A stretch of 64,000 nucleotides of DNA from assembly GCF_016903815.1 (NCBI RefSeq), contig NZ_CP069973.1; one strand, given 5' to 3'. This document shows positions 26,612 to 47,964 of the stretch, piece by piece; the stretch's first letter is position 1, and each line of letters begins with the position of its first letter. The notes beneath the pieces are model-generated. The model saw nothing but the letters and a program-made list of their open reading frames with translations. It did not search any database and had not been told where the DNA came from. The stretch is from Escherichia coli (GTDB taxonomy: Bacteria > Pseudomonadota > Gammaproteobacteria > Enterobacterales > Enterobacteriaceae). The position numbers were made by a program, and so were the translations under genes.

Positions 26612-29044
26612 ATGAGTGTGATTGCGCAGGCAGGGGCGAAAGGTCGTCAACTGCATAAATTTGGTGGCAGTAGTCTGGCTGATGTGAAGTGTTATTTGCG
26701 TGTCGCGGGCATTATGGCGGAGTACTCTCAGCCTGACGATATGATGGTGGTTTCCGCCGCCGGTAGCACCACTAACCAGTTGATTAACTGGTTGAAACTA
26801 AGTCAGACCGATCGTCTCTCTGCGCATCAGGTTCAACAAACGCTGCGTCGCTATCAGTGCGATCTGATTAGCGGCCTGCTACCCGCCGAAGAAGCCGATA
26901 GCCTCATTAGTGCCTTTATCAGCGATCTTGAGCGCCTGGCGGCGCTGCTCGACAGCGGTATTAACGACGCGGTGTATGCGGAAGTGGTGGGCCACGGCGA
27001 AGTGTGGTCGGCGCGCCTGATGTCTGCGGTACTTAATCAACAAGGGCTGCCAGCGGCCTGGCTTGATGCTCGCGAGTTTTTACGCGCTGAACGCGCTGCG
27101 CAACCGCAGGTTGATGAAGGGCTTTCTTACCCGTTGCTGCAACAGCTACTGGTACAACATCCAGGCAAACGTCTGGTGGTGACCGGGTTTATCAGCCGTA
27201 ACAACGCCGGTGAAACGGTGCTGCTGGGGCGTAACGGTTCCGACTATTCCGCGACACAAATCGGTGCGCTGGCGGGAGTTTCCCGCGTAACCATCTGGAG
27301 CGACGTCGCCGGGGTATACAGCGCCGACCCGCGTAAAGTGAAAGATGCCTGCCTGCTGCCGTTGCTGCGTCTGGATGAGGCCAGCGAACTGGCGCGTCTG
27401 GCGGCTCCCGTTCTTCACGCCCGTACTTTACAGCCAGTTTCTGGCAGCGAAATCGACCTGCAACTGCGCTGTAGCTACACGCCGGATCAAGGTTCCACGC
27501 GCATTGAACGCGTGCTGGCCTCCGGTACTGGTGCGCGTATTGTCACCAGCCATGATGATGTCTGCTTGATTGAGTTTCAGGTGCCCGCCAGCCAGGATTT
27601 CAAACTGGCGCATAAAGAGATCGACCAGATCCTGAAACGTGCTCAGGTGCGCCCACTGGCGGTTGGCGTGCATAACGATCGCCAGTTGCTGCAATTTTGC
27701 TACACCTCAGAAGTGGCCGACAGTGCGCTGAAAATCCTCGACGAAGAGGGATTACCTGGCGAACTGCGCCTGCGTCAGGGGCTGGCGCTGGTGGCGATGG
27801 TTGGGGCGGGTGTCACCCGTAACCCGCTGCATTGCCACCGCTTCTGGCAGCAACTGAAAGGCCAGCCGGTCGAATTTACCTGGCAGTCCGATGACGGCAT
27901 CAGCCTGGTGGCAGTACTGCGCACCGGACCAACCGAAAGCCTGATTCAGGGGCTGCATCAGTCCGTCTTCCGCGCAGAAAAACGCATCGGCCTGGTATTG
28001 TTCGGCAAGGGCAATATCGGTTCCCGCTGGCTGGAACTGTTCGCCCGTGAGCAGAGCACGCTTTCGGCGCGTACCGGCTTTGAATTTGTGCTGGCAGGCG
28101 TGGTGGACAGCCGCCGCAGCCTGTTGAGCTATGACGGGCTGGACGCCAGCCGCGCGTTAGCCTTCTTCAACGATGAAGCGGTCGAGCAGGATGAAGAGTC
28201 GCTGTTCCTGTGGATGCGCGCCCATCCGTATGATGATTTAGTGGTGTTGGACGTTACCGCCAGCCAGCAGCTTGCTGATCAGTATCTCGATTTTGCCAGC
28301 CACGGTTTCCACGTCATCAGCGCCAACAAACTGGCGGGAGCGAGCGACAGCAATAAATATCGCCAGATCCACGACGCCTTCGAAAAAACCGGGCGTCACT
28401 GGCTGTACAACGCCACCGTCGGTGCGGGCTTGCCGATCAACCATACCGTGCGCGATCTGATCGACAGCGGCGATACTATTTTGTCGATCAGTGGGATCTT
28501 CTCCGGCACGCTCTCCTGGCTGTTCCTGCAATTCGACGGTAGCGTGCCGTTTACCGAGCTGGTGGATCAGGCGTGGCAGCAGGGCTTAACCGAGCCTGAT
28601 CCGCGTGATGACCTTTCCGGCAAAGACGTGATGCGCAAGCTGGTGATTCTGGCGCGTGAAGCGGGTTACGACATCGAACCAGATCAGGTGCGCGTGGAAT
28701 CGCTGGTGCCTGCCCATTGCGAAGGCGGTAGCATCGACCATTTCTTTGAAAACGGCGATGAACTTAACGAGCAGATGGTGCAACGACTGGAAGCGGCCCG
28801 CGAAATGGGGCTGGTGCTGCGCTATGTGGCGCGTTTCGATGCCAATGGCAAAGCGCGTGTGGGCGTGGAAGCGGTGCGTGAAGACCATCCGCTGGCATCA
28901 CTGCTGCCGTGCGATAACGTCTTTGCCATCGAAAGCCGCTGGTATCGCGATAACCCTCTGGTGATCCGTGGGCCTGGCGCGGGGCGCGACGTCACCGCAG
29001 GGGCGATTCAGTCGGATATTAACCGCCTGGCGCAGTTGTTGTAA
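26612..29044 (+). CDS. metL: bifunctional aspartokinase II / homoserine dehydrogenase II
   Basis: 810-aa ORF starting 2 nt after the metB stop; recognised as MetL. Confidence 0.96.
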   Translation: MSVIAQAGAKGRQLHKFGGSSLADVKCYLRVAGIMAEYSQPDDMMVVSAAGSTTNQLINWLKLSQTDRLSAHQVQQTLRRYQCDLISGLLPAEEADSLISAFISDLERLAALLDSGINDAVYAEVVGHGEVWSARLMSAVLNQQGLPAAWLDAREFLRAERAAQPQVDEGLSYPLLQQLLVQHPGKRLVVTGFISRNNAGETVLLGRNGSDYSATQIGALAGVSRVTIWSDVAGVYSADPRKVKDACLLPLLRLDEASELARLAAPVLHARTLQPVSGSEIDLQLRCSYTPDQGSTRIERVLASGTGARIVTSHDDVCLIEFQVPASQDFKLAHKEIDQILKRAQVRPLAVGVHNDRQLLQFCYTSEVADSALKILDEEGLPGELRLRQGLALVAMVGAGVTRNPLHCHRFWQQLKGQPVEFTWQSDDGISLVAVLRTGPTESLIQGLHQSVFRAEKRIGLVLFGKGNIGSRWLELFAREQSTLSARTGFEFVLAGVVDSRRSLLSYDGLDASRALAFFNDEAVEQDEESLFLWMRAHPYDDLVVLDVTASQQLADQYLDFASHGFHVISANKLAGASDSNKYRQIHDAFEKTGRHWLYNATVGAGLPINHTVRDLIDSGDTILSISGIFSGTLSWLFLQFDGSVPFTELVDQAWQQGLTEPDPRDDLSGKDVMRKLVILAREAGYDIEPDQVRVESLVPAHCEGGSIDHFFENGDELNEQMVQRLEAAREMGLVLRYVARFDANGKARVGVEAVREDHPLASLLPCDNVFAIESRWYRDNPLVIRGPGAGRDVTAGAIQSDINRLAQLL

Positions 29045-30138
29045 TCCTGAGCCAGAGAAAGCAGTATTTGCGTAACGCGCCCTGCGGAAAGCGGGGCGCT
29101 GTGAGTAAATACTGCTTGTTTATGTAGCCAGTCGATAAAATGTCTGCTGGTTGCTAAAGAGAGCATTTCTGCTTTGCTGTTATTTCCGCCCGTTAATGCA
29201 CATACCATTTTACGATTTTTGCCCTGAACCCAGAGTTGCCACTGATTTTTCCACCAGCCGTGATAAGTTGTTCCCTGAAAACGCCAGGGCATATTATCGG
29301 TATCGTCAGCTATTTCCTCTTCAATAAACCAAATCTCACCTTGCTGTTGGCGAAACAGATCAGCCCATGCCGTAATAATGGCACCTCTTAAAAAACACTC
29401 GTGTGAAATTACATGTGTTTTTACTGTAGGGAATAAAATATTCAGTACTCTGAAATGCCCGTGTGCAGTGATAACCGGACGCAGAATAACACCTTTAGCA
29501 TTGCGTTTGAGCGCTGCGCTGCCATATTGAATCTCATCAAACTGACTGCGGCGTAGAAATTGTGCTTCGCGCATATCAACGCGTTGTACAATATTACTCT
29601 CGTGTAACTCTGGTTCTGCATTCCCTCTGTATCGATAATGCAGACTTTCTCCAGCCTGATGCTGCGTGTAATTAGTAGAAAGATGAAGAATATTACCGCG
29701 AAGAGCATCAAAACTGATTAAAACATACAGTTTCTGCCCGCCGCTGGCTCCCTGAAATGGCACCAGAAGAGCAACCGTTTCGATTATTTCAGGAGGCGTT
29801 ATTTCTTTCTGATATTGTTTAGGTGTCCAGACTTTTTTGCAGTTACGACATTGAATGCGTTGCGACCCCTGTGGATTGTGGCCATAACAAATCGTCTTTG
29901 TGCCATAACATACCGGGCAGAAATGACCTTTCTCAGTTGCAAAAGTAGATAAGTGAACTGACAACCAGTCACGAAATTGCTGTTCGTCAAACAACGGCGG
30001 GTAACTTCCACATGCCCGACAGTGCAGTGCCGGATAACCCAGTCGATAGTCTGGCCAGCTGTAATCTGTCGATGTTGGTTGCCCTAAATTACGACAACCA
30101 AACGACTTGCAGGCATTAATCGTAAACAGAGTCGACAT
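29008..30138 (-). CDS. hypothetical protein with Cys-rich (putative zinc-ribbon) N-terminal region; not present at this locus in K-12 as I recall
   Basis: 376-aa ORF. N-terminal 110 aa contain four Cys pairs (C-x4-C, HC-x2-C, C-x2-C, C-x2-C). No family recognised. Region is more AT-rich than the flanking genes. The 3' end overlaps the metL 3' end by 37 nt. Confidence 0.55.
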   Translation of the reverse strand: MSTLFTINACKSFGCRNLGQPTSTDYSWPDYRLGYPALHCRACGSYPPLFDEQQFRDWLSVHLSTFATEKGHFCPVCYGTKTICYGHNPQGSQRIQCRNCKKVWTPKQYQKEITPPEIIETVALLVPFQGASGGQKLYVLISFDALRGNILHLSTNYTQHQAGESLHYRYRGNAEPELHESNIVQRVDMREAQFLRRSQFDEIQYGSAALKRNAKGVILRPVITAHGHFRVLNILFPTVKTHVISHECFLRGAIITAWADLFRQQQGEIWFIEEEIADDTDNMPWRFQGTTYHGWWKNQWQLWVQGKNRKMVCALTGGNNSKAEMLSLATSRHFIDWLHKQAVFTHSAPLSAGRVTQILLSLAQDYNNCARRLISD

Positions 30139-30270
30139 ATATCACCAACGATTTCACAAGGTCGTTGATTTTGTCCGGCAACTATCCCCTGCGGATGTGA
30201 TTACTCTCACATAAATAACTCTTTCAGAACGTAATGTAGCAATCCTTTAAATCACTGAAAGGGACTATTT

Positions 30271-31824
30271 ATGAAAATTAAAATACTTGCTGCGGGTATC
30301 GCATTAACATTGCCGTTCTGGGCTTGCGCCAAAGATGTCACCATCATTTATACCAACGACCTCCATGCGCATGTCGAGCCTTATAAAGTGCCGTGGATCG
30401 CTGATGGTAAACGGGATATTGGCGGCTGGGCAAATATCACTACGCTGGTTAAGCAAGAAAAAGCAAAAAATAAAGCGACATGGTTTTTTGATGCGGGTGA
30501 TTATTTTACCGGGCCATATATCAGCAGCCTGACCAAAGGTAAGGCTATTATCGATATTATGAATACTATGCCGTTTGATGCCGTCACGATAGGCAACCAT
30601 GAATTTGACCACGGCTGGGACAACACATTATTACAGTTGAGTCAGGCAAAATTCCCTATTGTGCAGGGCAATGTTTTTTATCAGAACAGCAGTAAATCAT
30701 TCTGGGATAAGCCATATACCATCATCGAAAAAGACGGTGTGAAAATAGGCGTTATAGGTTTGCACGGTGTATTTGCCTTTAATGACACGGTATCTGCGGC
30801 AACGCGAGTGGGGATTGAAGCGCGTGATGAAATTAAATGGCTACAACGTTATATCGATGAACTTAAAGGCAAGGTTGATTTGACCGTCGCCCTGATCCAT
30901 GAAGGTGTTCCGGCCCGCCAGTCCAGTATGGGAGGCACAGATGTGCGTCGCGCGCTGGATAAAGATATTCAGACGGCAAGTCAGGTGAAAGGGCTGGATA
31001 TTTTGATCACCGGACATGCGCATGTGGGTACGCCGGAACCGATTAAAGTCGGCAATACGCTCATCCTCTCCACTGACAGCGGCGGGATTGATGTGGGCAA
31101 ACTGGTTCTCGACTACAAAGAGAAGCCGCATGATTTTACGGTGAAAAACTTCGAGCTTAAAACCATTTACGCCGACGAGTGGAAGCCCGATCCGCAAACA
31201 AAACAGGTGATCGACGGCTGGAATAAAAAGCTTGATGAAGTGGTGCAACAAACGGTCGCGAAATCGCCGGTTGAATTAAAACGTGCCTATGGTGAATCGG
31301 CTTCCCTCGGGAACCTGGCGGCTGATGCTTTACTGGTAGCGGCGGGTAAAAACACCCAATTGGCGTTAACCAACTCTGGCGGCATTCGCAATGAGATCCC
31401 CGCAGGGGCGATTACGATGGGCGGCGTCATCAGTACCTTCCCGTTTCCCAACGAACTGGTGACGATGGATCTCACGGGTAAACAATTACGCAGTTTGATG
31501 GAACACGGCGCAAGTTTAAGTAATGGCGTTTTACAGGTATCGAAAGGCCTGGAAATGAAGTACGACAGCAGTAAGCCGGTTGGTCAGCGGGTAATCACGC
31601 TGACTCTGAATGGCAAACCGATTGAAGATGCGACGATTTACCACATTGCTACTCAGAGTTTCCTTGCTGATGGTGGAGATGGTTTTACCGCCTTTACCGA
31701 AGGGAAAGCGCGTAACACAACGGGCGGTTATTACGTTTATCACGCCGTGGTTGATTACTTCAAAGCGGGTAACACCATCACGGATGAACAGATCAACGGT
31801 ATGCGCGTGAAAGATATCAAGTAA
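30271..31824 (+). CDS. secreted 5'-nucleotidase / UDP-sugar hydrolase family metallophosphoesterase (UshA-like)
   Basis: 517-aa ORF with N-terminal signal peptide ([20 protein letters not shown]). Calcineurin-like phosphoesterase motifs ([27 protein letters not shown]) and C-terminal 5'-nucleotidase-type motifs ([19 protein letters not shown]). Divergent from the 376-aa ORF. Confidence 0.8.
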
Positions 31825-37578: not shown

Positions 37579-38682
37579 TTATTCCCACTCTTGCAGGAAA
37601 CGCTGACCGTACTGGTCGGCTACCAGCAGTGCAGCGTAAACCTGATCTGGCGTCGCGCCGCCAGGCATGTTGTGGATGGTTTCACCTTCTGCACATGCCG
37701 CTTCTGCCACAATTCGCATTTTCGCCGGGACATCTTCTTTAATATCCAGTTGAGCGAGAGTTATTGGCAAACCTACCGCATGGCTAAGTGCAGCTACGGT
37801 TTCGATTTCCTCCACCGGCGCATTTTCCAGAACCAGCTGCGTCAGCGTACCAAATGCCACTTTTTCACCGTGATAATAGTGATGTGCATCTGGAATAGCG
37901 GTCAGGCCGTTATGCACTGCGTGCGCCGCAGCCAGACCACCACTTTCAAAGCCTACACCGCTTAAATAGGTGTTCGCTTCAATCACGCGTTCCAGCGCAG
38001 GGGTTACTACATGCTGTTCGGCGGCAAGCATCGCTTTTTCGCCTTCTTCCAGCAGGGTGTTGTAGCACAGTTCAGCCAGTGCCAGCGCCGCCTGGGTGCA
38101 CTTGCCGCCCGCCATGGTGGTCGCGCCGCTACGAGAGCAGGCACGCGCTTCAAACCAGGTTGCCAGCGCATCGCCGATACCCGCCGCTAACAGACGCGCA
38201 GGTGCGCCAGCGACGATTTTGGTGTCGACAATGACCATATTCGGGTTATTTGGCAACATCAGATAGCGGTCAAATTCACCATCATCGGTGTAGATAACAG
38301 ACAATGCGCTGCACGGTGCGTCGGTAGAGGCGATAGTCGGTGCGATCGCTACCGGAACACCCATGAAATGTGCCAGTGCTTTGGCAGTATCGAGAGTTTT
38401 TCCGCCACCGATACCGAGAATTGCGCCACACTGCGCAGTCTCCGAGATGCCACGCAGACGGTCGATCTCATTTTGCGAACATTCACCGCCAAACGGCGCA
38501 ATTTCTACTACCAGTCCAGCATCTTTAAAGCTTTTCTCGACAGTGGATTGAGCAAAACCTAAAACAAATTTGTCACCCACCACTAACCAGCGTTCTGCCA
38601 GCGGCTTCAGGTATTCGCCCAGACGATTAATCACATCAGCGCCCTGGATGTATTTACCCGGTGATTGAATAATGCGGTCCAT
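37579..38682 (-). CDS. gldA: glycerol dehydrogenase
   Basis: 367-aa product starting [28 protein letters not shown] inside the listed ORF 37579..38721; recognised as GldA. Confidence 0.96.
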
Positions 38683-38692
38683 AATTGCTCCT

Positions 38693-39355
38693 TTAGAGAT
38701 GAGTAGTGCCAAATGCGGCATTCCAGTCGTGTTCGAACTTCTCTATAGCTGACTCTACCGCAGGGGTGTTGAGCATTTGTTGCGCTACATCTAAGGGCAG
38801 GGTGATGGATTCACATCCTGCCAGTAAACAGTCCAGCGCCTGACGCGGCGTTTTAAAGCTGGCCGCCAGCACCATGCTTTCTGGTGCGTGCATTTCTAAC
38901 AGTGCTTGCAGCTCCTGAACCGTACGAATGCCGTCTCCGCCCTGGGCATCTACGCGGTTAACATACGGAGCAACGTATTTTGCCCCTGCCAGTGCGGCTA
39001 ATAACCCTTGTGCGGCGCTATATACAGCGGTGCCAAGTGTAGTAATACCCTCTTTTTTCAGTATTTTAATTGCTGCCAGACCTTCGGAAGTCACCGGGAT
39101 TTTCACCACAATACCCGGAATGGCGTCGCGCAGGCGCTTCGCTTCTTCCACCATCCCCTGCGCGTCGCGGCTCATGGTCTGAGCAAACAGAATGCCCTCA
39201 TCACCAATCGCTTTTTGCAGACGCGGCAGCACTTCCCATATGGACTCCTTGCTGGCAGCGATAATGCTCGGGTTAGTTGTCACCCCGGCAATCGGGAATA
39301 TGCGTGCCAGACGTTCGACTTCTGCGACGTTAGCGGTGTCCAGATACAGTTCCAT
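38693..39355 (-). CDS. fsaB: fructose-6-phosphate aldolase 2
   Basis: 220-aa [40 protein letters not shown]...; recognised as FsaB (TalC). Confidence 0.95.
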
Positions 39356-39366
39356 GATGTTTCCTT

Positions 39367-41868
39367 TTACAGTTCCAGTTCATGTTGCAGCAGGCTGGCG
39401 ATAGCGTCGGCAGAGGCGGCGTTAACCAGCGCGTTACGGAATTCTTCGTGCATGATGCGGCGAGCGAGGCGCGAGAAAATGCGCATGTGCTGATCGCCCG
39501 CAGCGTGTTTGTTCAGCGTTAACATAATGATGAATTGCGCTTCATCATCGCCCCAGCGCACCGGCGCTTGCAGACGCGCTACGCTGATGGTGGATTGCTC
39601 AATATGTTCCGATTTGCTGTGGGGAATGGCAAAACTAAAGCCCAGACCGGTAGAGAAAACGGCCTCGCGCGCCCACAAGTCGGCTTCCAGTTTACGCGGA
39701 TAGCGGCAGCGGCCCGCCAGCAGCAGGTTATCGGTCATGCCTTTGAGCACTTCTTCTTTGCTGCGCCAGTCGCTTTCCAGTGTGATGCACTCGGCGGTGA
39801 CCAGCGGTGCGTCTTGTTGGGTCATGCGGAATTGCGCCAGCAGATGTTCCACTTCCAGCGAAGTACGGCAGGCCATTGCCTGGTTGAGCAACTTGCGGCA
39901 CTCACGGCTATCAAGTTGCGCCATTCGCGCTTTCGCCGCCGGAATTGACGGTGCGCTCATGCTCAGCTCATCCAGCCCTAAACCGACCAGCAATGGCAGC
40001 ACGGAACCTTTCGCTCCCAGTTCACCGCACAGACCAATCCATTTGCCCTGGCGATGCACCGCCTGCACGGCGTAATCGAGCGCCCGCAAGAATGCTGGAT
40101 TCAGGCTGTTATAGTGACGAGTAACCTTAGCGTTATCGCGATCCACTGCCAGCAGATATTGCGTCAGGTCATTACTACCGATACTAAAGAAATCAATCTC
40201 TTCGCAGCATTGATCGATGATGAACATCACCGACGGCACTTCCAGCATAATGCCGAGCTGGATCTTCTCATCAAACGGAATGTGTTCGTTACGCAGTTGC
40301 TGTTTGGCTTCCGCCAGTTTTTCTTTCACCCATAAGATCTCTTCCATTGAAGAGATCATCGGGATCATGATTTTCAGGCTGCCGTGAGCGGAGGCACGGA
40401 GAATCGACCGTAGTTGTGTGGTAAATAACGACGCGTACTCTTCATAAATACGCACGGCGCGATAACCGAGGAACGGGTTTGCCTCTGCGGGAATGTTCAG
40501 ATAATCAACGGGTTTGTCACCGCCAATATCCATAGTGCGCACAATAATGCTGCGTCCGTTGGCGGACTCCAGCGCCTGACAAAAAATGTTGTACAGCTCG
40601 CTTTCGCCCGGTGCACTGGTGCGATCCATATAGAGCATTTCAGTGCGGAATAAACCAACGCCTTCCGCACCATTGCCGAATGCGGCCTGCGCTTCCACGG
40701 AGTGAGCGATGTTAGCGGCAATTTCAATGCGGATACCGTCAGCGGTACGGGCTTGTTGGGTCAGCCAGACACGCTGTTGCTCACGCAGGGCGTCCTGTAC
40801 GCGGGCTTCCTGCTGATAATAACGAGCTACGGCTTCCCCTGGCTCAACCACAATCGCCCCAGCGTTGCCGTCGATATAAATCGTTTGATGCTGCCACGGA
40901 GTGAGGGCATCAATATCCACACCAACCAGCGTCGGAATGTTGAACGAACGGGCAAGGATCACCGTATGTGAGGTGGTGCCGCCGCTTTTGAGCAACAATC
41001 CTTTGAGGTGATTTTTATCCAGTTCGAGGAACTGGCTGGGGGTCAGTTCATCAGCCATACAAATGGCGGGCTGCGTCAGTTTGCCCGGTGCCGGGAAGCG
41101 TTGCTCACCGTAGATTTGCTGGAGTAACTGGAAGCAGACGTCGCGTACGTCCAGGGCACGTTCTTGCAGGTAGCTGCTGCTGGAACGAGCGAACTCTTCG
41201 CAGAAGTGGTGTGCACTGGCGACAATCGCTTCGGCACAGCTTAATCCCTCGCTGACGCCTGCCAGTAAGTGCTGACGTAAAGAAGTATCGCCAGCCAGGG
41301 ATCGGTGAGCTTCCAGTATCGCGCTGGTAGCACCGTCGCTATCCAGCAGACGAAATTCAATGTTTTTCATCACCAGTGTCAGGCCGTTTTCCAGCGCGGA
41401 TTGCTCGGCGTCAACGCCTTTGGCAGCAGGAAGATTACCCAGCGCATTGAGATCTAAAGAAGAGATCGGCGTCAGAATGCCGCCTGCGCTACCGCTGCAC
41501 ACGGTGCGGGCGCGGATAATTTGCGGATTCAGATTGGTCAGTGAAACCGGCAGGGGTTCCAGTTCGTCAGATTTAACTTCCACCAGCGGCGCATCGCAGT
41601 GGGGGAATTCATCGCGCAGCCATTGGCTTAAACGCTGGTACGCTTCCTGTTCGTCGGCCCCGGAAATCAGTAACTGGCAGTTATCGCCCACCAGCGTATC
41701 GGTGCCAATCAGCGCAAGAGCGCTTTTGGCGTTGCCCTTACGGTCAGTGCGCAGGTTATGCCACTCAATTTGTGATGAAAAAGTATTACACAGCGTTTCA
41801 ACGTGGCTTGCCGGACGCGCATGTACGCCGTTAGGTAGCTCACAAATAAATTCCACAATCAGGGCCAT
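39367..41868 (-). CDS. ptsA: multiphosphoryl transfer protein PtsA (fused EI / HPr / EIIA-like PTS protein)
   Basis: 833-aa ORF with HPr-like N-terminus, enzyme I-like core and EIIA-like C-terminus; recognised as PtsA (FrwA). Confidence 0.93.
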
Positions 41869-42176
41869 TGCCTCTCTCCCGGTACGGTTTTCTGTTTACA
41901 GGATAAGAGCGCACGGCAACGGCCTGCCATGTGACAAATCTGCCAAAAGCTGGACAAATGTAATGTAACCGTCAATTTGCGACGCGTCTCACAAGACGCC
42001 GTTTTGCGGCATGCTCCCGGATTATCGCAAGTTATGAGGCGGATCGCATTTTTGTACTGATATTACAAAAGTCCAGTAAATGGCCTTTTTATCCACTGTT
42101 TGCTCCGCCTGCGATTGCCTATTGTTTCCTCCATCAAAAATATGGACATGGGCTTTTGCAAGCCCGGGAGCAGCTT

Positions 42177-43256
42177 ATGAATGAGTTGGTGCAGATCCTG
42201 AAAAATACCCGTCAGCATTTAATGACGGGCGTTTCACACATGATTCCCTTCGTGGTATCGGGCGGTATTTTGCTGGCGGTTTCCGTCATGTTGTATGGCA
42301 AAGGTGCAGTGCCGGATGCCGTCGCCGATCCGAATCTGAAAAAACTGTTTGATATCGGCGTTGCAGGTTTGACGCTGATGGTGCCTTTCCTCGCCGCTTA
42401 CATCGGTTACTCCATTGCAGAACGTTCTGCGCTGGCTCCATGCGCTATCGGTGCCTGGGTTGGTAACAGCTTTGGTGCGGGCTTCTTTGGTGCACTGATC
42501 GCCGGGATTATCGGCGGCATCGTGGTGCATTACCTGAAGAAAATTCCGGTGCATAAAGTTCTGCGTTCGGTGATGCCAATCTTCATCATTCCGATCGTCG
42601 GCACACTGATTACCGCAGGCATCATGATGTGGGGGCTGGGCGAGCCTGTGGGGGCATTGACCAACAGCCTGACTCAGTGGCTTCAGGGGATGCAGCAGGG
42701 CAGCATTGTTATGCTGGCGGTGATCATGGGCCTGATGCTGGCGTTCGATATGGGCGGTCCGGTTAACAAAGTGGCCTATGCCTTCATGCTGATTTGCGTT
42801 GCTCAGGGTGTTTATACCGTGGTGGCCATTGCTGCCGTGGGTATTTGTATTCCGCCGCTGGGGATGGGGCTGGCGACGCTGATTGGTCGTAAAAATTTCT
42901 CCGCAGAAGAGCGCGAAACCGGTAAAGCGGCGCTGGTGATGGGGTGCGTTGGGGTTACTGAAGGGGCGATTCCTTTCGCCGCTGCCGATCCGCTGCGTGT
43001 TATTCCTTCCATCATGGTCGGTTCAGTTTGTGGTGCGGTAACTGCGGCACTGGTCGGTGCACAGTGCTATGCAGGTTGGGGTGGTCTGATTGTGCTGCCG
43101 GTGGTTGAAGGCAAGCTGGGTTATATCGCAGCAGTGGCTGTCGGAGCAGTGGTGACGGCAGTCTGCGTGAACGTGCTGAAAAGTCTGGCGCGTAAAAATG
43201 GGTCTTCGACTGATGAAAAAGAAGACGACCTGGATTTGGATTTTGAAATTAATTAA
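42177..43256 (+). CDS. frwC: fructose-like PTS permease EIIC component
   Basis: 359-aa product starting MNELVQILKNTRQHLMTGVSHMIPFVVSGG inside the listed ORF 42156..43256. Confidence 0.93.
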   Translation: MNELVQILKNTRQHLMTGVSHMIPFVVSGGILLAVSVMLYGKGAVPDAVADPNLKKLFDIGVAGLTLMVPFLAAYIGYSIAERSALAPCAIGAWVGNSFGAGFFGALIAGIIGGIVVHYLKKIPVHKVLRSVMPIFIIPIVGTLITAGIMMWGLGEPVGALTNSLTQWLQGMQQGSIVMLAVIMGLMLAFDMGGPVNKVAYAFMLICVAQGVYTVVAIAAVGICIPPLGMGLATLIGRKNFSAEERETGKAALVMGCVGVTEGAIPFAAADPLRVIPSIMVGSVCGAVTAALVGAQCYAGWGGLIVLPVVEGKLGYIAAVAVGAVVTAVCVNVLKSLARKNGSSTDEKEDDLDLDFEIN

Positions 43257-43270
43257 TTGAGGAACGAGCC

Positions 43271-43591
43271 ATGACGAAAATTATTGCAGTAACCGCGTGT
43301 CCATCTGGTGTTGCCCATACCTATATGGCGGCAGAGGCGCTGGAAAGTGCCGCGAAAGCGAAAGGCTGGGAAGTGAAAGTAGAAACCCAGGGGTCAATTG
43401 GTCTGGAAAATGAACTGACAGCGGAAGACGTGGCGAGCGCCGATATGGTGATTCTGACCAAAGATATCGGCATCAAGTTTGAAGAGCGTTTTGCTGGCAA
43501 GACCATCGTGCGCGTCAACATCAGCGACGCGGTAAAACGCGCTGATGCCATTATGAGCAAAATTGAAGCTCACCTGGCACAAACCGTTTAA
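43271..43591 (+). CDS. frwB: fructose-like PTS EIIB component
   Basis: 106-aa ORF MTKIIAVTACPSGVAHTYMAAEALESAAKAKGWEVKVETQGS...; recognised as FrwB. Confidence 0.93.
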   Translation: MTKIIAVTACPSGVAHTYMAAEALESAAKAKGWEVKVETQGSIGLENELTAEDVASADMVILTKDIGIKFEERFAGKTIVRVNISDAVKRADAIMSKIEAHLAQTV

Positions 43592-43641
43592 GTTCTTATC
43601 CCGCCCGTAAGGGCGGGTTCGCTTTCCCACAGGAGTTCCTC

Positions 43642-45939
43642 ATGACGAATCGTATCTCTCGCCTCAAAACTGCACTGTTTGCCAATACCCGTGAAATCTC
43701 GCTGGAGCGTGCGCTGCTTTATACCGCCAGCCATCGGCAAACCGAAGGCGAACCGGTGATATTGCGCCGGGCGAAAGCAACAGCGTATATCCTTGAACAT
43801 GTTGAAATTTCGATTCGTGATGAAGAACTGATTGCCGGTAACCGCACCGTAAAACCGCGCGCCGGGATTATGTCGCCGGAAATGGACCCTTACTGGCTGC
43901 TGAAAGAGTTGGATCAATTCCCGACGCGTCCGCAGGACCGCTTTGCTATCAGCGAAGAAGATAAACGTATCTACCGCGAAGAGTTGTTCCCGTACTGGGA
44001 AAAACGTTCGATGAAAGATTTCATCAACGGGCAGATGACGGATGAAGTAAAAGCCGCGACCAGCACGCAGATTTTCAGCATCAACCAGACGGATAAAGGC
44101 CAGGGGCACATTATTATTGATTACCCGCGCCTGCTGAATCACGGGCTGGGGGAGCTGGTGGCACAGATGCAGCAACATTGTCAGCAACAGCCGGAGAATC
44201 ACTTTTATCAGGCAGCGCTGTTACTGCTGGAAGCCTCGCGGAAACACATTCTGCGTTACGCTGAACTGGCGGAAACGATGGCGGCAAACTGCACAGATGC
44301 CCAGCGTCGCGAAGAACTGCTGACTATTGCGGAGATCTCCCGCCATAACGCCGAACATAAGCCGCAGACGTTCTGGCAGGCGTGCCAGTTATTCTGGTAC
44401 ATGAACATCATTCTGCAATACGAATCCAACGCCAGTTCTCTGTCTTTAGGGCGCTTCGACCAGTATATGTTGCCGTTCTATCAGGCATCATTAACCCAGT
44501 GCGAAGATCCGGCGTTCCTGAAAGAACTGCTCGAATCTTTATGGGTGAAATGCAACGATATCGTGCTGTTGCGCTCCACCAGTAGCGCGCGTTATTTCGC
44601 CGGTTTCCCGACCGGCTATACCGCACTGCTCGGCGGGTTAACCGAGAACGGACGTAGCGCGGTGAACGTACTTTCGTTCCTCTGTCTCGACGCCTATCAA
44701 AGTGTGCAATTACCGCAACCGAACCTGGGGGTGCGCACTAACGCCTTGATCGACACGCCGTTCCTGATGAAAACCGCAGAAACTATTCGCCTCGGTACCG
44801 GTATTCCGCAAATCTTTAACGATGAAGTGGTGGTGCCAGCGTTCCTCAACCGTGGCGTTTCGCTGGAAGATGCGCGCGACTATTCCGTAGTGGGCTGCGT
44901 GGAATTATCTATTCCCGGCAGAACCTACGGCTTGCATGACATCGCGATGTTTAACCTGCTGAAAGTGATGGAAATCTGCCTGCATGAAAATGAAGGTAAC
45001 GCTGCGCTGACTTATGAAGGTTTACTGGAACAGATCCGCGCCAAGATCAGCCACTACATCACCCTGATGGTAGAGGGCAGCAATATTTGTGATATCGGCC
45101 ATCGCGACTGGGCACCTGTACCGCTGCTCTCGTCTTTTATCAGCGATTGTCTGGAAAAAGGTCGCGATATTACCGATGGCGGCGCGCGTTATAACTTCTC
45201 CGGCGTACAGGGGATCGGTATCGCCAACCTGAGCGATTCTCTCCATGCGTTGAAAGGGATGATTTTTGATCAACAGCGTTTAAGTTTTGACGAATTGCTG
45301 TCGGTATTAAAAGCCAACTTCGCAACGCCAGAAGGCGAAAAAGTCCGTGCTCGCTTAATTAACCGCTTCGAGAAATACGGTAACGATATCGACGAGGTGG
45401 ATAACATCAGCGCCGAACTGTTACGCCACTACTGCAAAGAAGTGGAAAAATACCAGAACCCGCGCGGCGGCTACTTCACGCCGGGATCGTATACCGTTTC
45501 TGCTCACGTCCCGTTGGGATCGGTGGTTGGCGCGACGCCAGACGGTCGTTTTGCCGGTGAACAACTGGCAGACGGCGGCTTGTCACCCATGCTGGGCCAG
45601 GACGCACAAGGGCCAACGGCGGTACTGAAGTCAGTCAGTAAGCTCGATAATACGCTGCTGTCTAACGGTACGTTGCTGAACGTGAAATTCACTCCGGCGA
45701 CCCTGGAAGGTGAAGCGGGATTACGCAAACTGGCCGACTTCTTACGGGCATTTACCCAGCTTAAGTTACAACACATTCAGTTTAACGTGGTGAACGCCGA
45801 CACGTTGCGGGAAGCGCAACAGCGCCCACAAGATTATGCCGGGCTGGTGGTGCGCGTTGCCGGATACAGCGCCTTCTTTGTCGAATTGTCGAAGGAGATC
45901 CAGGATGACATCATCCGCCGGACAGCGCATCAGCTGTAA
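43642..45939 (+). CDS. pflD: glycyl-radical enzyme (pyruvate formate-lyase homologue) PflD
   Basis: 765-aa ORF with C-terminal glycyl-radical motif (VRVAGYSAFF); recognised as PflD. Confidence 0.95.
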   Translation: MTNRISRLKTALFANTREISLERALLYTASHRQTEGEPVILRRAKATAYILEHVEISIRDEELIAGNRTVKPRAGIMSPEMDPYWLLKELDQFPTRPQDRFAISEEDKRIYREELFPYWEKRSMKDFINGQMTDEVKAATSTQIFSINQTDKGQGHIIIDYPRLLNHGLGELVAQMQQHCQQQPENHFYQAALLLLEASRKHILRYAELAETMAANCTDAQRREELLTIAEISRHNAEHKPQTFWQACQLFWYMNIILQYESNASSLSLGRFDQYMLPFYQASLTQCEDPAFLKELLESLWVKCNDIVLLRSTSSARYFAGFPTGYTALLGGLTENGRSAVNVLSFLCLDAYQSVQLPQPNLGVRTNALIDTPFLMKTAETIRLGTGIPQIFNDEVVVPAFLNRGVSLEDARDYSVVGCVELSIPGRTYGLHDIAMFNLLKVMEICLHENEGNAALTYEGLLEQIRAKISHYITLMVEGSNICDIGHRDWAPVPLLSSFISDCLEKGRDITDGGARYNFSGVQGIGIANLSDSLHALKGMIFDQQRLSFDELLSVLKANFATPEGEKVRARLINRFEKYGNDIDEVDNISAELLRHYCKEVEKYQNPRGGYFTPGSYTVSAHVPLGSVVGATPDGRFAGEQLADGGLSPMLGQDAQGPTAVLKSVSKLDNTLLSNGTLLNVKFTPATLEGEAGLRKLADFLRAFTQLKLQHIQFNVVNADTLREAQQRPQDYAGLVVRVAGYSAFFVELSKEIQDDIIRRTAHQL

Positions 45940-46783
45940 CGTTGTGGAAACGCGCCGCAATGATGTGGCGCGCATTTTCAACATTCAGCGTTATTCACTG
46001 AATGACGGCGAGGGCATTCGTACGGTGGTCTTTTTTAAAGGCTGTCCGCATCTTTGCCCATGGTGTGCTAATCCGGAGTCGATCTCCGGCAAAATCCAGA
46101 CGGTACGCAGAGAGGCGAAATGTCTGCACTGTGCGAAATGTTTGCGTGATGCGGATGAATGCCCCTCCGGGGCGTTTGAACGGATTGGCCGCGATATCAG
46201 CCTTGACGCGCTGGAACGGGAAGTGATGAAAGATGACATTTTCTTTCGCACGTCCGGCGGCGGCGTCACGCTTTCTGGCGGCGAAGTGTTAATGCAGGCG
46301 GAGTTTGCTACCCGTTTTTTACAGCGGCTGCGGTTGTGGGGCGTGTCATGCGCCATTGAAACTGCCGGAGACGCGCCAGCCAGCAAGCTGTTACCGCTGG
46401 CGAAATTGTGCGATGAAGTGTTGTTCGATTTAAAAATTATGGACGCGACTCAGGCGCGGGATGTGGTGAAGATGAACCTGCCACGCGTGCTGGAGAATCT
46501 GCGTTTGCTGGTGAGTGAGGGCGTCAACGTGATCCCGCGTTTACCGCTGATCCCTGGTTTCACGCTCAGCCGGGAGAATATGCAGCAGGCGCTGGACGTG
46601 CTGATCCCGCTGAATATCAGGCAGATCCATCTGTTACCGTTTCATCAGTACGGCGAACCGAAATACCGCCTGCTGGGGAAAACATGGTCGATGAAAGAGG
46701 TGCCTGCGCCGTCGTCAGTCGATGTGGCAACGATGCGTGAAATGGCAGAGCGGGCCGGATTTCAGGTTACCGTGGGAGGTTAA
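45905..46783 (+). CDS. pflC: glycyl-radical enzyme activase (radical SAM) PflC
   Basis: 292-aa product starting MTSSAGQRISCNVVETRRNDVARIFNIQRYSLNDGEGIRTVVFFKGCPHLCPWCANPE (CxxxCxxC cluster) inside the listed ORF 45836..46783; overlaps the pflD 3' end by 35 nt. Confidence 0.93.
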   Translation: MTSSAGQRISCNVVETRRNDVARIFNIQRYSLNDGEGIRTVVFFKGCPHLCPWCANPESISGKIQTVRREAKCLHCAKCLRDADECPSGAFERIGRDISLDALEREVMKDDIFFRTSGGGVTLSGGEVLMQAEFATRFLQRLRLWGVSCAIETAGDAPASKLLPLAKLCDEVLFDLKIMDATQARDVVKMNLPRVLENLRLLVSEGVNVIPRLPLIPGFTLSRENMQQALDVLIPLNIRQIHLLPFHQYGEPKYRLLGKTWSMKEVPAPSSVDVATMREMAERAGFQVTVGG

Positions 46784-46784
46784 A

Positions 46785-47126
46785 ATGGCATACCTGGTGG
46801 CAGTAACCGCCTGCGTAAGCGGCGTGGCGCATACTTATATGGCGGCGGAACGGCTGGAAAAGTTGTGCCTGTTAGAGAAGTGGGGCGTCAGCATTGAAAC
46901 TCAGGGCGCGCTGGGAACGGAGAATCGTTTAGCGGACGAGGATATCCGTCGGGCGGATGTTGCTCTGTTAATTACGGATATCGAGCTTGCCGGTGCTGAG
47001 CGATTTGACCATTGCCGCTATGTGCAATGCAGCATCTACGCATTCCTGCGTGAGCCGCAGCGGGTGATGAGCGCGGTGCGCAAAGTGCTTTCTGCGCCGC
47101 AGCAAACCCATCTCATTCTGGAGTAG
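46785..47126 (+). CDS. frwD: fructose-like PTS EIIB component 2
   Basis: 113-aa product starting MAYLVAVTACVSGVAHTYMAAERLEKL inside the listed ORF 46722..47126. Confidence 0.92.
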   Translation: MAYLVAVTACVSGVAHTYMAAERLEKLCLLEKWGVSIETQGALGTENRLADEDIRRADVALLITDIELAGAERFDHCRYVQCSIYAFLREPQRVMSAVRKVLSAPQQTHLILE

Positions 47127-47964
47127 TCGGTTTTTCTGTCAGTTGGCTGTGGTACTGCCGACGATATTCCGACGGTGAGCGTTCGGTATTTTTACGAAAC
47201 AGACGGCAGAAGTAGTTGCTGTCGACAAAGCCGCAGGCGTGCGCCACTTCTTTTACCTTCAGGTCATAGCCTTTCAATAACGTCTTAGCGTGCTCCAGTC
47301 GCGTGTGATTCAGGTATTCGTTAAAACCAATGGCCCCCGTTTTTTGAAACAGGTGCGAGAGGTAATTTGGTGAAATATAAAACGCCTGTGCAACAGATTC
47401 GCGGGTAAGCGCGGAGGCATAGCGTTCGTCGATATAATCGCGAATAGCTTCAAATAGTGCCTGGCTGCGTGAGGCGGTCTGGATTTGGCTGCCGAGCAAA
47501 TCGCGGCAGTGGCTAAGCAGGCTGGCGACGATAAGCCTTGCCGTTTGCTGCTCCTGCGGCTGCATTTGCATTTCATTGAGCGTTTGTAGCAGAAAAGAAC
47601 CTATGCGTGGGCCGCGCCGGGCGACGTGTTGCTTCGCCAGATTTTGATATTGTTTGCCATCCCATTGCACGACGCTGAAGCCGAGTTGCTGTTTGCCAAA
47701 CAGCACGCTAAAGGTAGTGGCGGGGGCTTGCCATTGTGGAAAATTCCAGCCACCAGCAGGAACGTACAACACATCGCCGGGAACTAACGTTGCTCCAGCA
47801 CCGGTATCAACAAACTCACCTTCCAGCACAATTTCCAGCCGTGGAAAATCGACCTGATACGCAAGATCGGGCACCGGGCCGTTACTGCTGGCAAAGTAAA
47901 TCTGGCGCAGGGACAGCGGGCCGTTGATCAGGCGGGAGAGCAGATAGCTGACGTCGTGATACAT
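47113..47964 (-). CDS. yijO: AraC-family transcriptional regulator YijO
   Basis: 283-aa ORF with C-terminal AraC-type HTH region; convergent with frwD and overlapping it by 14 nt. Confidence 0.9.
   Translation of the reverse strand: MYHDVSYLLSRLINGPLSLRQIYFASSNGPVPDLAYQVDFPRLEIVLEGEFVDTGAGATLVPGDVLYVPAGGWNFPQWQAPATTFSVLFGKQQLGFSVVQWDGKQYQNLAKQHVARRGPRIGSFLLQTLNEMQMQPQEQQTARLIVASLLSHCRDLLGSQIQTASRSQALFEAIRDYIDERYASALTRESVAQAFYISPNYLSHLFQKTGAIGFNEYLNHTRLEHAKTLLKGYDLKVKEVAHACGFVDSNYFCRLFRKNTERSPSEYRRQYHSQLTEKPTTPE

Follow-up and report, generated by a model that had tools for sequence, protein, structure and literature searches.

What is a glycyl-radical enzyme doing in the middle of a sugar-transport operon? 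On the E. coli chromosome, at positions 39367-47126 of the window (the whole stretch of 64,000 nucleotides that was analysed), ptsA is divergent from frwC-frwB-pflD-pflC-frwD. This gene content had been described in the original prediction, and we confirm it here. The same prediction held that the substrate was unassigned and the function of the locus unresolved, a view that is out of date. The function of PflD was published in 2024, and the finding is therefore real and already explained. We consider it very probable that the locus encodes an anaerobic pathway for 1,5-anhydro-D-mannitol, or 'anhydroglycolysis'.

Of the 5426 complete E. coli genomes, 5425 carry the locus, so a chance arrangement need not be considered, and its gene order agrees with the RefSeq annotation of E. 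coli generally. In the lineage of this strain the DNA of the stretch is just 95-99% identical to that of most E. coli. The boundaries that had been drawn around the locus were too tight, as these left out fsaB, gldA and yijO (Table 1). On the ptsA side, fsaB begins 11 nucleotides after ptsA, and gldA, the last gene of the string, begins 10 nucleotides after fsaB; ptsA-fsaB-gldA has been reported as a single operon (PMC6643234). On the other side, yijO is convergent on frwD, with an overlap of 14 nucleotides. These three genes, two downstream of ptsA and one facing frwD, belong to the functional unit.

Table 1. Features of the ptsA-frw-pflDC locus and its flanking genes, in window coordinates.
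Feature	Position	Strand	Description	Evidence
gldA	37579..38682	-	NAD-dependent glycerol / L-1,2-propanediol dehydrogenase	RefSeq annotation; NCBIfam NF047954 751 bits, cutoff 700
fsaB (talC)	38693..39355	-	fructose-6-phosphate aldolase	TIGR00875 353 bits, cutoff 246
ptsA	39367..41868	-	HPr-EI-EIIA (Fru-type) fusion, phosphoryl relay, 833 aa	Pfam domains; TIGR01417 480 bits, cutoff 342
divergent control region	41869..42176		308 bp, between ptsA and frwC	
frwC	42177..43256	+	fructose-family PTS EIIC permease, 359 aa	NF007787 720 bits, cutoff 426; TIGR01427 300 bits, cutoff 158
frwB	43271..43591	+	PTS EIIB (Fru type)	PF02302 83 bits; TIGR00829 137.7 bits, cutoff 76.85
hairpin	43600..43617	+	in the frwB-pflD gap	
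pflD	43642..45939	+	glycyl radical enzyme, eliminase class, 765 aa	PDB 8yjo match; TIGR01774
pflC	45905..46783	+	radical-SAM activase of PflD, 292 aa	TIGR02494 261 bits, cutoff 174
frwD	46785..47126	+	second EIIB (Fru type)	PF02302 55 bits; TIGR00829 85.4 bits, cutoff 76.85
yijO	47113..47964	-	AraC-family regulator	HTH_18 and HTH_AraC domains

What type of enzyme is PflD? RefSeq and NCBIfam (NF007437) still label it 'formate C-acetyltransferase', and name PflC a '[formate-C-acetyltransferase]-activating enzyme'. Taken at face value, these names describe a second pyruvate (or 2-ketoacid) formate-lyase with its activase, and Frw would be a spare fructose PTS; PtsA has also been cited within a putative PTS that would serve the anaerobic breakdown of fructose (PMC6643234). 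The model and structure matches argue against this reading. PflD fails the PFL equivalog TIGR01255 (118 bits, cutoff 994), yet it passes TIGR01774, the PFL2/glycerol-dehydratase model of the eliminase subfamily (1343 bits, cutoff 678). Among its structure matches PflB reaches only E = 3.6e-32, compared with the 8e-195 of glycerol dehydratase. A full-length match of 1722.8 bits is to PDB 8yjo, the PflD crystal structure itself (9 substitutions in 765 residues, about 99% identity), whose depositors name the protein a dehydratase ('Probable dehydratase PflD').

The catalytic residues point the same way. The Cys loop of PflD, G418-C419-V420-E421, hosts a lone catalytic cysteine with a glutamate two residues on, and in the alignment the same four residues, GCVE, stand opposite it in glycerol dehydratase 1r8w, diol dehydratase 5i2a and 9rco. 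The loop segment matched no PFL structure at E <= 0.001. The active site of PflB is a vicinal Cys418-Cys419 pair (textbook residues), whereas the corresponding loop of PflD reads G-C and lacks a vicinal Cys-Cys. The glycyl-radical motif that had been spotted in PflD is RVAGY at residues 738-742, with G741 as the radical residue, and the Pfam Gly_radical domain (PF01228) is matched at 108 bits (cutoff 22.2). We give the formate-lyase reading next to no credence, and the public annotation of PflD as a formate C-acetyltransferase is a mislabel.

The reaction of PflD has been described by Ma et al. (J Am Chem Soc 2024;146:26187, doi 10.1021/jacs.4c07718), which we cite as it is summarised in PMC12441222. 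According to this summary, PflD converts 1,5-anhydromannitol-6-phosphate (AM6P) to 1-deoxyfructose-6-phosphate, and the paralogue YbiW obtains the same product from 1,5-anhydroglucitol-6-phosphate (1,5-AG6P). The 6-phosphate substrates arise by PTS phosphorylation of the polyol, and the cleavage is strictly anaerobic. The literature check suggested earlier for the PflD substrate and the Frw specificity has consequently yielded an assignment for PflD. For Frw, the secondary sources consulted do not name this system, in preference to any other PTS, as the anhydromannitol carrier of E. coli. The earlier inference of anaerobic catabolism, with a PTS feeding a sugar phosphate to an oxygen-sensitive glycyl-radical step, was right.

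The radical-SAM motif attributed to PflC is also in place. It reads C47-PHL-C51-PW-C54 (CxxxCxxC) and is invariant in six orthologues. The 35-nucleotide overlap between the start of pflC and the 3′ end of pflD is real, and gene calls for Salmonella, Citrobacter, Leclercia and Edwardsiella show an overlap of the same length. The annotated pflC ATG at 45905 follows an AAGGAG Shine–Dalgarno sequence with a spacing of 6 nucleotides. We kept this start because both the ATG and the AAGGAG are conserved in Edwardsiella, and rejected the sole in-frame alternatives that would avoid the overlap, GTG 45944 and GTG 45965, neither of which is conserved there. Translational coupling from pflD to pflC is plausible on the strength of this arrangement. 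The next gene, frwD, starts 1 nucleotide beyond the pflC stop.

The PTS components EIIC, EIIB and EIIA all pass Fru-family models. PtsA had been given the domain order EI/HPr/EIIA; the Pfam domains place HPr first (PTS-HPr, 7-84, 54 bits), followed by EI at 123-653 (PEP-utilisers_N 123-237, PEP-utilizers 266-337 and PEP-utilizers_C 363-653) and then EIIA_2 (PTS_EIIA_2, 690-829, 117 bits). The frwC reading frame in the program-made list opens at TTG 42156, and a conserved Shine–Dalgarno sequence, GGGAG, goes with the annotated start, ATG 42177. A Pfam scan of FrwC gave no match. We treat this blank as a filter miss, as the NCBIfam matches of FrwC and the precomputed PF02378 matches of its orthologues identify it as the EIIC. 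There are two EIIB proteins, with the active-site motifs VTACPSGVAHT in FrwB and VTACVSGVAHT in FrwD, versus a single IIB in the PflD clusters of Firmicutes. Context and literature point to anhydromannitol, not fructose, as the transport substrate, and Frw would then be the anhydromannitol transporter. The 50-nucleotide gap between frwB and pflD contains a perfect 7-bp G+C hairpin (-18.5 kcal/mol, z -2.0). Leclercia shares this hairpin; in Salmonella, Citrobacter and Edwardsiella its place is taken by a REP-like element.

We also compared gene clusters between genera. Genes for an activase and for a fructose-6-phosphate aldolase are linked to pflD in E. coli and also in Salmonella, Citrobacter, Leclercia, Edwardsiella, Streptococcus, Clostridium and Bacillus. 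In Streptococcus dysgalactiae the order is EIIA-IIB-EIIC-GRE-AE-FSA-FeADH on one strand, with the GldA-like FeADH after the aldolase; a Bacillus sp. has EIIC, EIIA, IIB, GRE, AE, FSA, HPr and EI; and a Clostridium sp. has GRE-AE-FSA adjoining a YbiW-type GRE. A fructose-type PTS accompanies two of these three clusters, and a GldA-like dehydrogenase accompanies one. Edwardsiella carries the entire fsa...yijO module at another chromosomal site, without an adjoining gldA, and its TAL_FSA gene flanks ptsA. In Lactiplantibacillus the set is down to the radical enzyme and its activase plus a DeoR regulator, with no aldolase linkage. The Lactiplantibacillus set and the lack of gldA in the Edwardsiella cluster speak against the pathway, and the Streptococcus, Bacillus, Clostridium and Edwardsiella clusters support it independently of the publication.

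Could ptsA-fsaB-gldA instead be a dihydroxyacetone/glycerol module, functionally separate from frwCB-pflDC-frwD and a mere neighbour of it? Overexpression of fsaB and gldA betters growth on dihydroxyacetone (PMC6643234), and PtsA is weakly similar to DhaM (89 bits). However, PtsA is not involved in the dihydroxyacetone effect and the genes are poorly expressed aerobically (PMC6643234). In the three Firmicute genera the aldolase gene comes directly after those for the radical enzyme and its activase, fsa and ptsA have relocated together with frw-pflDC in Edwardsiella, and the Fru-type EIIA of PtsA fits the EIIB and EIIC of Frw. We therefore regard two separate modules as very improbable, and treat the genes as parts of one anhydromannitol pathway.

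In this pathway, phosphate would pass from PEP to the EI domain of PtsA, then to its HPr and EIIA domains, and on to FrwB and/or FrwD. The sugar analogue would enter via FrwC and be released as a 6-phosphate. PflC, with S-adenosylmethionine and a [4Fe-4S] cluster, would place the radical on Gly741 of PflD. A thiyl radical on Cys419, aided by Glu421, may then abstract a hydrogen beside the ring oxygen linkage, and elimination of the C1-O5 bond would open the ring to give 1-deoxyfructose-6-phosphate; the detail of this radical mechanism is our inference. FsaB would cleave the product to hydroxyacetone and glyceraldehyde-3-phosphate, the latter entering glycolysis, and GldA would reduce hydroxyacetone with NADH to 1,2-propanediol. 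The FsaB and GldA steps are reportedly part of the pathway described in 2024, and the gene linkage seen here supports them.

Another possibility is that AM6P is cleaved in vitro and that the physiological substrate of Frw and PflD differs, e.g. a 1,5-anhydrofructose product or a related anhydro- or deoxy-hexitol. In humans, according to PMC12441222, 1,5-anhydromannitol is a 'non-physiological polyol', which leaves no obvious natural gut source for it; the same article has it formed from 1,5-anhydrofructose by a soil-bacterial reductase. Moreover, GFO/IDH/MocA oxidoreductase genes lie within or beside the clusters of Clostridium and Bacillus, and the Bacillus cluster also includes an SDR/epimerase gene; both observations hint at an upstream conversion. 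The E. coli cluster, though, has no gene for an extra conversion, and a substrate-bound crystal structure is said to be included in the 2024 work. PMC12441222 also reports that each of the two polyols has an anaerobic breakdown pathway and that PflD is specific for the mannitol epimer, and anaerobic growth on anhydromannitol is on record in the literature. A different physiological substrate is unlikely in our estimation, and anhydromannitol remains the favoured one.

How might the cluster be controlled? A motif scan of the 308-bp control region found a CRP-like site, TGCGA-N6-TCACA, at 41978-41993, and no consensus sigma-70 promoter, inverted repeat or FNR-like site with two or fewer mismatches. 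Matches to sigma-54 and Cra sites in the region were too weak for use. An alignment of five genera has conserved blocks at 41926-41936, 41950-41966, 42040-42052, 42060-42102 and 42113-42129, which, going by their conservation, are probably functional. The convergent 14-nucleotide frwD/yijO overlap is identical in five genera, including Edwardsiella with its relocated cluster, and YijO is 78-88% identical among genera. The frwD-yijO pair is listed as an excludon. In PMC9308461, YijO still figures as a transcription factor of unknown function. The N-terminal domain of YijO gave only a sub-threshold cupin-like match (JmjC_2, 16.9 bits, cutoff 22), which we do not rely on. Because yijO accompanies the cluster even at its different site in Edwardsiella, we predict that YijO is its regulator, and the cluster would be regulated by both YijO and CRP.

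With slightly more doubt than belief, we can elaborate further on this idea. YijO may be an anhydromannitol-responsive AraC-type activator of both divergent operons, acting via the conserved stretch of about 90 bp at 42040-42129 together with CRP at the site given above. The frwD overlap could then provide antisense (excludon) feedback between regulator and operon, and FrwB and FrwD might be non-redundant, e.g. with one serving transport and the other signalling.

The locus is already known, and nothing new is added here beyond the 2024 publication. That advance explains what PflD, PflC and the Frw PTS are for and what FsaB and GldA do physiologically, and closes a long-standing gap in the annotation of E. 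coli. The locus shows the fermentation by gut bacteria of anhydro-sugars derived from starch or glycogen.

The locus can be compared with several known systems. It is the same as that of PflD/PflC with PtsA-FrwCBD, FsaB and GldA in E. coli K-12 (PDB 8YJO), with no substantive difference. The system YbiW/YbiY (PDB 8YJN, 8ID7) has an eliminase-class fold, matches PflD with 480 bits and, according to PMC12441222, shares its reaction type and product while acting on the C2 epimer of its substrate. In Clostridium sp. cel8 the YbiW-type and PflD-type enzymes lie side by side with one shared aldolase gene, and the YbiW type in Clostridium is paired with a mannose-family, not a fructose-family, PTS. 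Outside the PflD family, the closest characterised enzyme is the B12-independent glycerol dehydratase DhaB1/DhaB2 of Clostridium butyricum (1R8W, the 8e-195 match above). Like PflD, DhaB1 has the identical GCVE loop and a dedicated radical-SAM activase; unlike PflD, it dehydrates a free triol and opens no cyclic ether of a sugar phosphate, nor is it linked to a PTS or aldolase.

Finally, the fructose PTS of E. coli, FruBKA, is of the same PTS family as Frw for EIIA, EIIB and EIIC. FruA has a IIB'-IIB arrangement, which the duplicated IIB of Frw recalls. In contrast to FruBKA, Frw brings an EI and HPr of its own, fused to EIIA, lacks a 1-phosphofructokinase gene and has an embedded radical enzyme. 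The product of the Frw route is reported, in PMC12441222, as a 6-phosphate, whereas fructose is converted to a 1-phosphate.

The stretch studied here is chromosomal E. coli DNA, and its 7.76-kb ptsA-frwD portion is 100% identical to that of E. coli strain 7/2 (NZ_CP023820). Of 5426 complete E. coli genomes, 5425 contain this portion, and coverage reaches 80% or more in 5393. The gene content and features originally predicted at 39367-47126 are confirmed, and the limits of this interval coincide exactly with the ends of ptsA and frwD. That said, the cluster boundary should be set wider, at 37579-47964.

Gene map of the cluster, supported by both ORF listing and RefSeq annotation
Feature	Position	Strand
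gldA	37579-38682	-
fsaB	38693-39355	-
ptsA	39367-41868	-
intergenic region, 308 bp	41869-42176	
frwC	42177-43256	+
frwB	43271-43591	+
pflD	43642-45939	+
pflC	45905-46783	+
frwD	46785-47126	+
yijO	47113-47964	-

PflD carries the predicted glycyl-radical motif (RVAGY, residues 738-742) in a protein with PFL-like and Gly_radical domains and a GCVE loop at 418-421. Although RefSeq and the NCBIfam model NF007437 (type 'equivalog') name it 'formate C-acetyltransferase', and PflC the activating enzyme, we reject pyruvate formate-lyase as its identity: with the PFL equivalog model (TIGR01255, cutoff 994) it reaches just 118 bits. Against the PFL2/glycerol-dehydratase subfamily (TIGR01774, cutoff 678) it scores 1343 bits. 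The best structure match is PDB 8yjo, 'Probable dehydratase PflD', at full length with 9 substitutions, while 8yjn and 8id7 are the E. coli paralogue YbiW. Outside its own family the closest solved structures are B12-independent glycerol dehydratase (8e-195) and diol dehydratase, with PflB structures reaching only 3.6e-32. When aligned, the Cys loop matches the GCVE of glycerol and diol dehydratases position by position. The naming of PflD and PflC is an annotation error that has spread to thousands of genomes.

The substrate of PflD had been regarded as unassigned. This claim no longer stands, since an assignment, 1,5-anhydromannitol-6-phosphate, was published in 2024, as cited in a 2025 review (PMC12441222). 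This review describes anaerobic pathways in gut bacteria for 1,5-anhydroglucitol and 1,5-anhydromannitol, both starting with PTS phosphorylation to the 6-phosphate. E. coli YbiW and PflD then cleave the respective 6-phosphates to 1-deoxyfructose-6-phosphate by a glycyl-radical reaction that is strictly oxygen-sensitive (PMC12441222). Two other papers cite the same 2024 work.

The domain scan shows that PtsA is a fusion of HPr, EI and EIIA (Fru type), in that order and not the predicted EI/HPr/EIIA. FrwC passes the fructose-family EIIC model and FrwB and FrwD the EIIB model, with the cysteine motif VTAC(P/V)SGVAHT retained in both EIIB proteins. In the mechanism we propose, a relay from PEP through PtsA (EI, HPr, EIIA) and FrwB/FrwD to FrwC would achieve uptake and 6-phosphorylation; we infer this role for Frw from its domains and from the review, which credits a PTS with the step (PMC12441222). 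PflC would install the radical on Gly741 of PflD, as adjacency and family membership suggest. PflD then opens the 1,5-anhydromannitol-6-phosphate ring, a published reaction (PMC12441222), and a PflD structure is deposited in the PDB. By analogy with diol dehydratases, in which the GCVE loop is also present, a thiyl radical may take hydrogen from C2, the C1-O5 bond may be eliminated with assistance from a Glu, and the hydrogen may be given back to C1. Such C2 abstraction would explain how two C2 epimers yield one product. Cleavage by FsaB and reduction by GldA would follow; these steps rest on gene linkage and on what the 2024 work reportedly found and, for GldA, also on its NCBIfam name ('bifunctional L-1,2-propanediol dehydrogenase/glycerol dehydrogenase'). 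In that work, FsaA or FsaB reportedly splits 1-deoxyfructose-6-phosphate into glyceraldehyde-3-phosphate and hydroxyacetone, GldA is reported to reduce hydroxyacetone to 1,2-propanediol, and E. coli reportedly grows anaerobically on both polyols via the pathway.

Alternatively, ptsA-fsaB-gldA might form a separate dihydroxyacetone module. However, the linkage of glycyl radical enzyme (GRE), activase and fructose-6-phosphate aldolase (FSA) recurs across genera, which argues against this. Salmonella, Citrobacter and Leclercia keep the full arrangement at the same katG...ppc site, and in Edwardsiella tarda the genes from fsa through the yijO homologue, without gldA, lie between uvrC/pgsA and the ato genes. 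Streptococcus dysgalactiae encodes EIIA_2, IIB, EIIC, GRE (PDB 8id0, which shares about 64% identity with PflD), activase, FSA and a GldA-like Fe-ADH on one strand. The order in Bacillus sp. HMF5848 is DeoR, EIIC, an SDR gene, EIIA_2, IIB, GRE, activase, FSA, HPr and EI; Lactiplantibacillus has DeoR, GRE and activase only. In Clostridium sp. cel8, GRE, activase, FSA and a GFO/IDH/MocA oxidoreductase are followed by a second activase, a YbiW-type GRE and a mannose-family PTS. A Fru-type PTS accompanies GRE-activase-FSA in two of three Firmicute clusters. The recurrent linkage is what the published pathway would lead us to expect.

The YbiW-type GRE of Clostridium sp. cel8 (metagenome contig L004, 15089-22298; 900 bits to PDB 8yjn) has its own activase, DeoR regulator and mannose-family PTS. 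It directly adjoins the GRE-activase-FSA genes of PflD type, so that the two anhydro-hexitol routes are grouped around one aldolase.

The CxxxCxxC motif predicted in PflC is found as C47xxxC51xxC54, unchanged in six orthologues. The predicted 35-nt overlap with pflD also holds, with the pflC ATG (45905) 6 nt past AAGGAG, and is likewise called in four further enteric genera. Edwardsiella keeps this ATG and Shine-Dalgarno, whereas in-frame GTG codons further downstream are not conserved. Firmicute orthologues have a gap of 12-21 nt between the two genes, and their activases lack an N-terminal extension of roughly 17 residues. The conserved start signals, the overlap across enterics and the gap in Firmicutes make translational coupling plausible in enterics.

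PflC also has a single ferredoxin-like Cys motif (CLHCAKCLRDADEC) at residues 73-86 (46121-46162), common to Edwardsiella and Bacillus activases. It is absent in Streptococcus and Lactiplantibacillus, and mostly so in Clostridium, where one Cys remains, so the auxiliary cluster seems dispensable in this activase family. Upstream, the 50-nt frwB-pflD gap hosts a perfect 7-bp G+C hairpin (CCCGCCC GTAA GGGCGGG, 43600-43617, plus strand; -18.5 kcal/mol in a 61-nt context). Leclercia has the identical hairpin; in Salmonella, Citrobacter and Edwardsiella a REP-like palindromic element takes its place. The hairpin may be a boundary for mRNA stability or partial termination between transporter and enzyme genes.

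In 2022, YijO was still listed among transcription factors of unknown function, and its N-terminal domain was described as unusually divergent (PMC9308461). It is 78-88% identical over five genera, and yijO is always convergent on frwD with a 14-nt overlap (47113-47126), an arrangement shared by Salmonella, Citrobacter, Leclercia and Edwardsiella. An RNA-seq-based list includes frwD-yijO as a convergent excludon (PMC12288877), yijO has relocated together with the cluster in Edwardsiella, and Firmicute clusters have DeoR-type regulators instead. On these grounds we predict that YijO regulates the cluster. A five-genus alignment of the divergent control region reveals conserved blocks at 41926-41936, 41950-41966, 42040-42052, 42060-42102 (the longest invariant one) and 42113-42129, and a CRP-like TGCGA-N6-TCACA (41978-41993) whose half-sites are conserved and whose spacer varies freely. 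Within these 308 bp we found no consensus sigma-70 promoter, no inverted repeat and, though the pathway is strictly anaerobic, no FNR-like box. These negative results are compatible with activator-dependent promoters but are no proof of them.

Elsewhere in the window, the annotated record of the identical strain 7/2 places a 4.2-kb RHS element core protein gene, a small RHS ORF downstream and an IS1H transposase with a frameshift at about 18783-24042, between rpmE and yiiX. Two additional genes lie between metL and metF (about 29008-31824): a minus-strand hypothetical protein gene whose 3′ end overlaps that of metL by 37 nt, and one for a bifunctional metallophosphatase/5′-nucleotidase.

In summary, the original prediction was right in spirit and has been overtaken by the 2024 assignment. 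What remains of value is the finding that public annotation is outdated, together with the YijO and Frw predictions; the cluster itself is an already known system.
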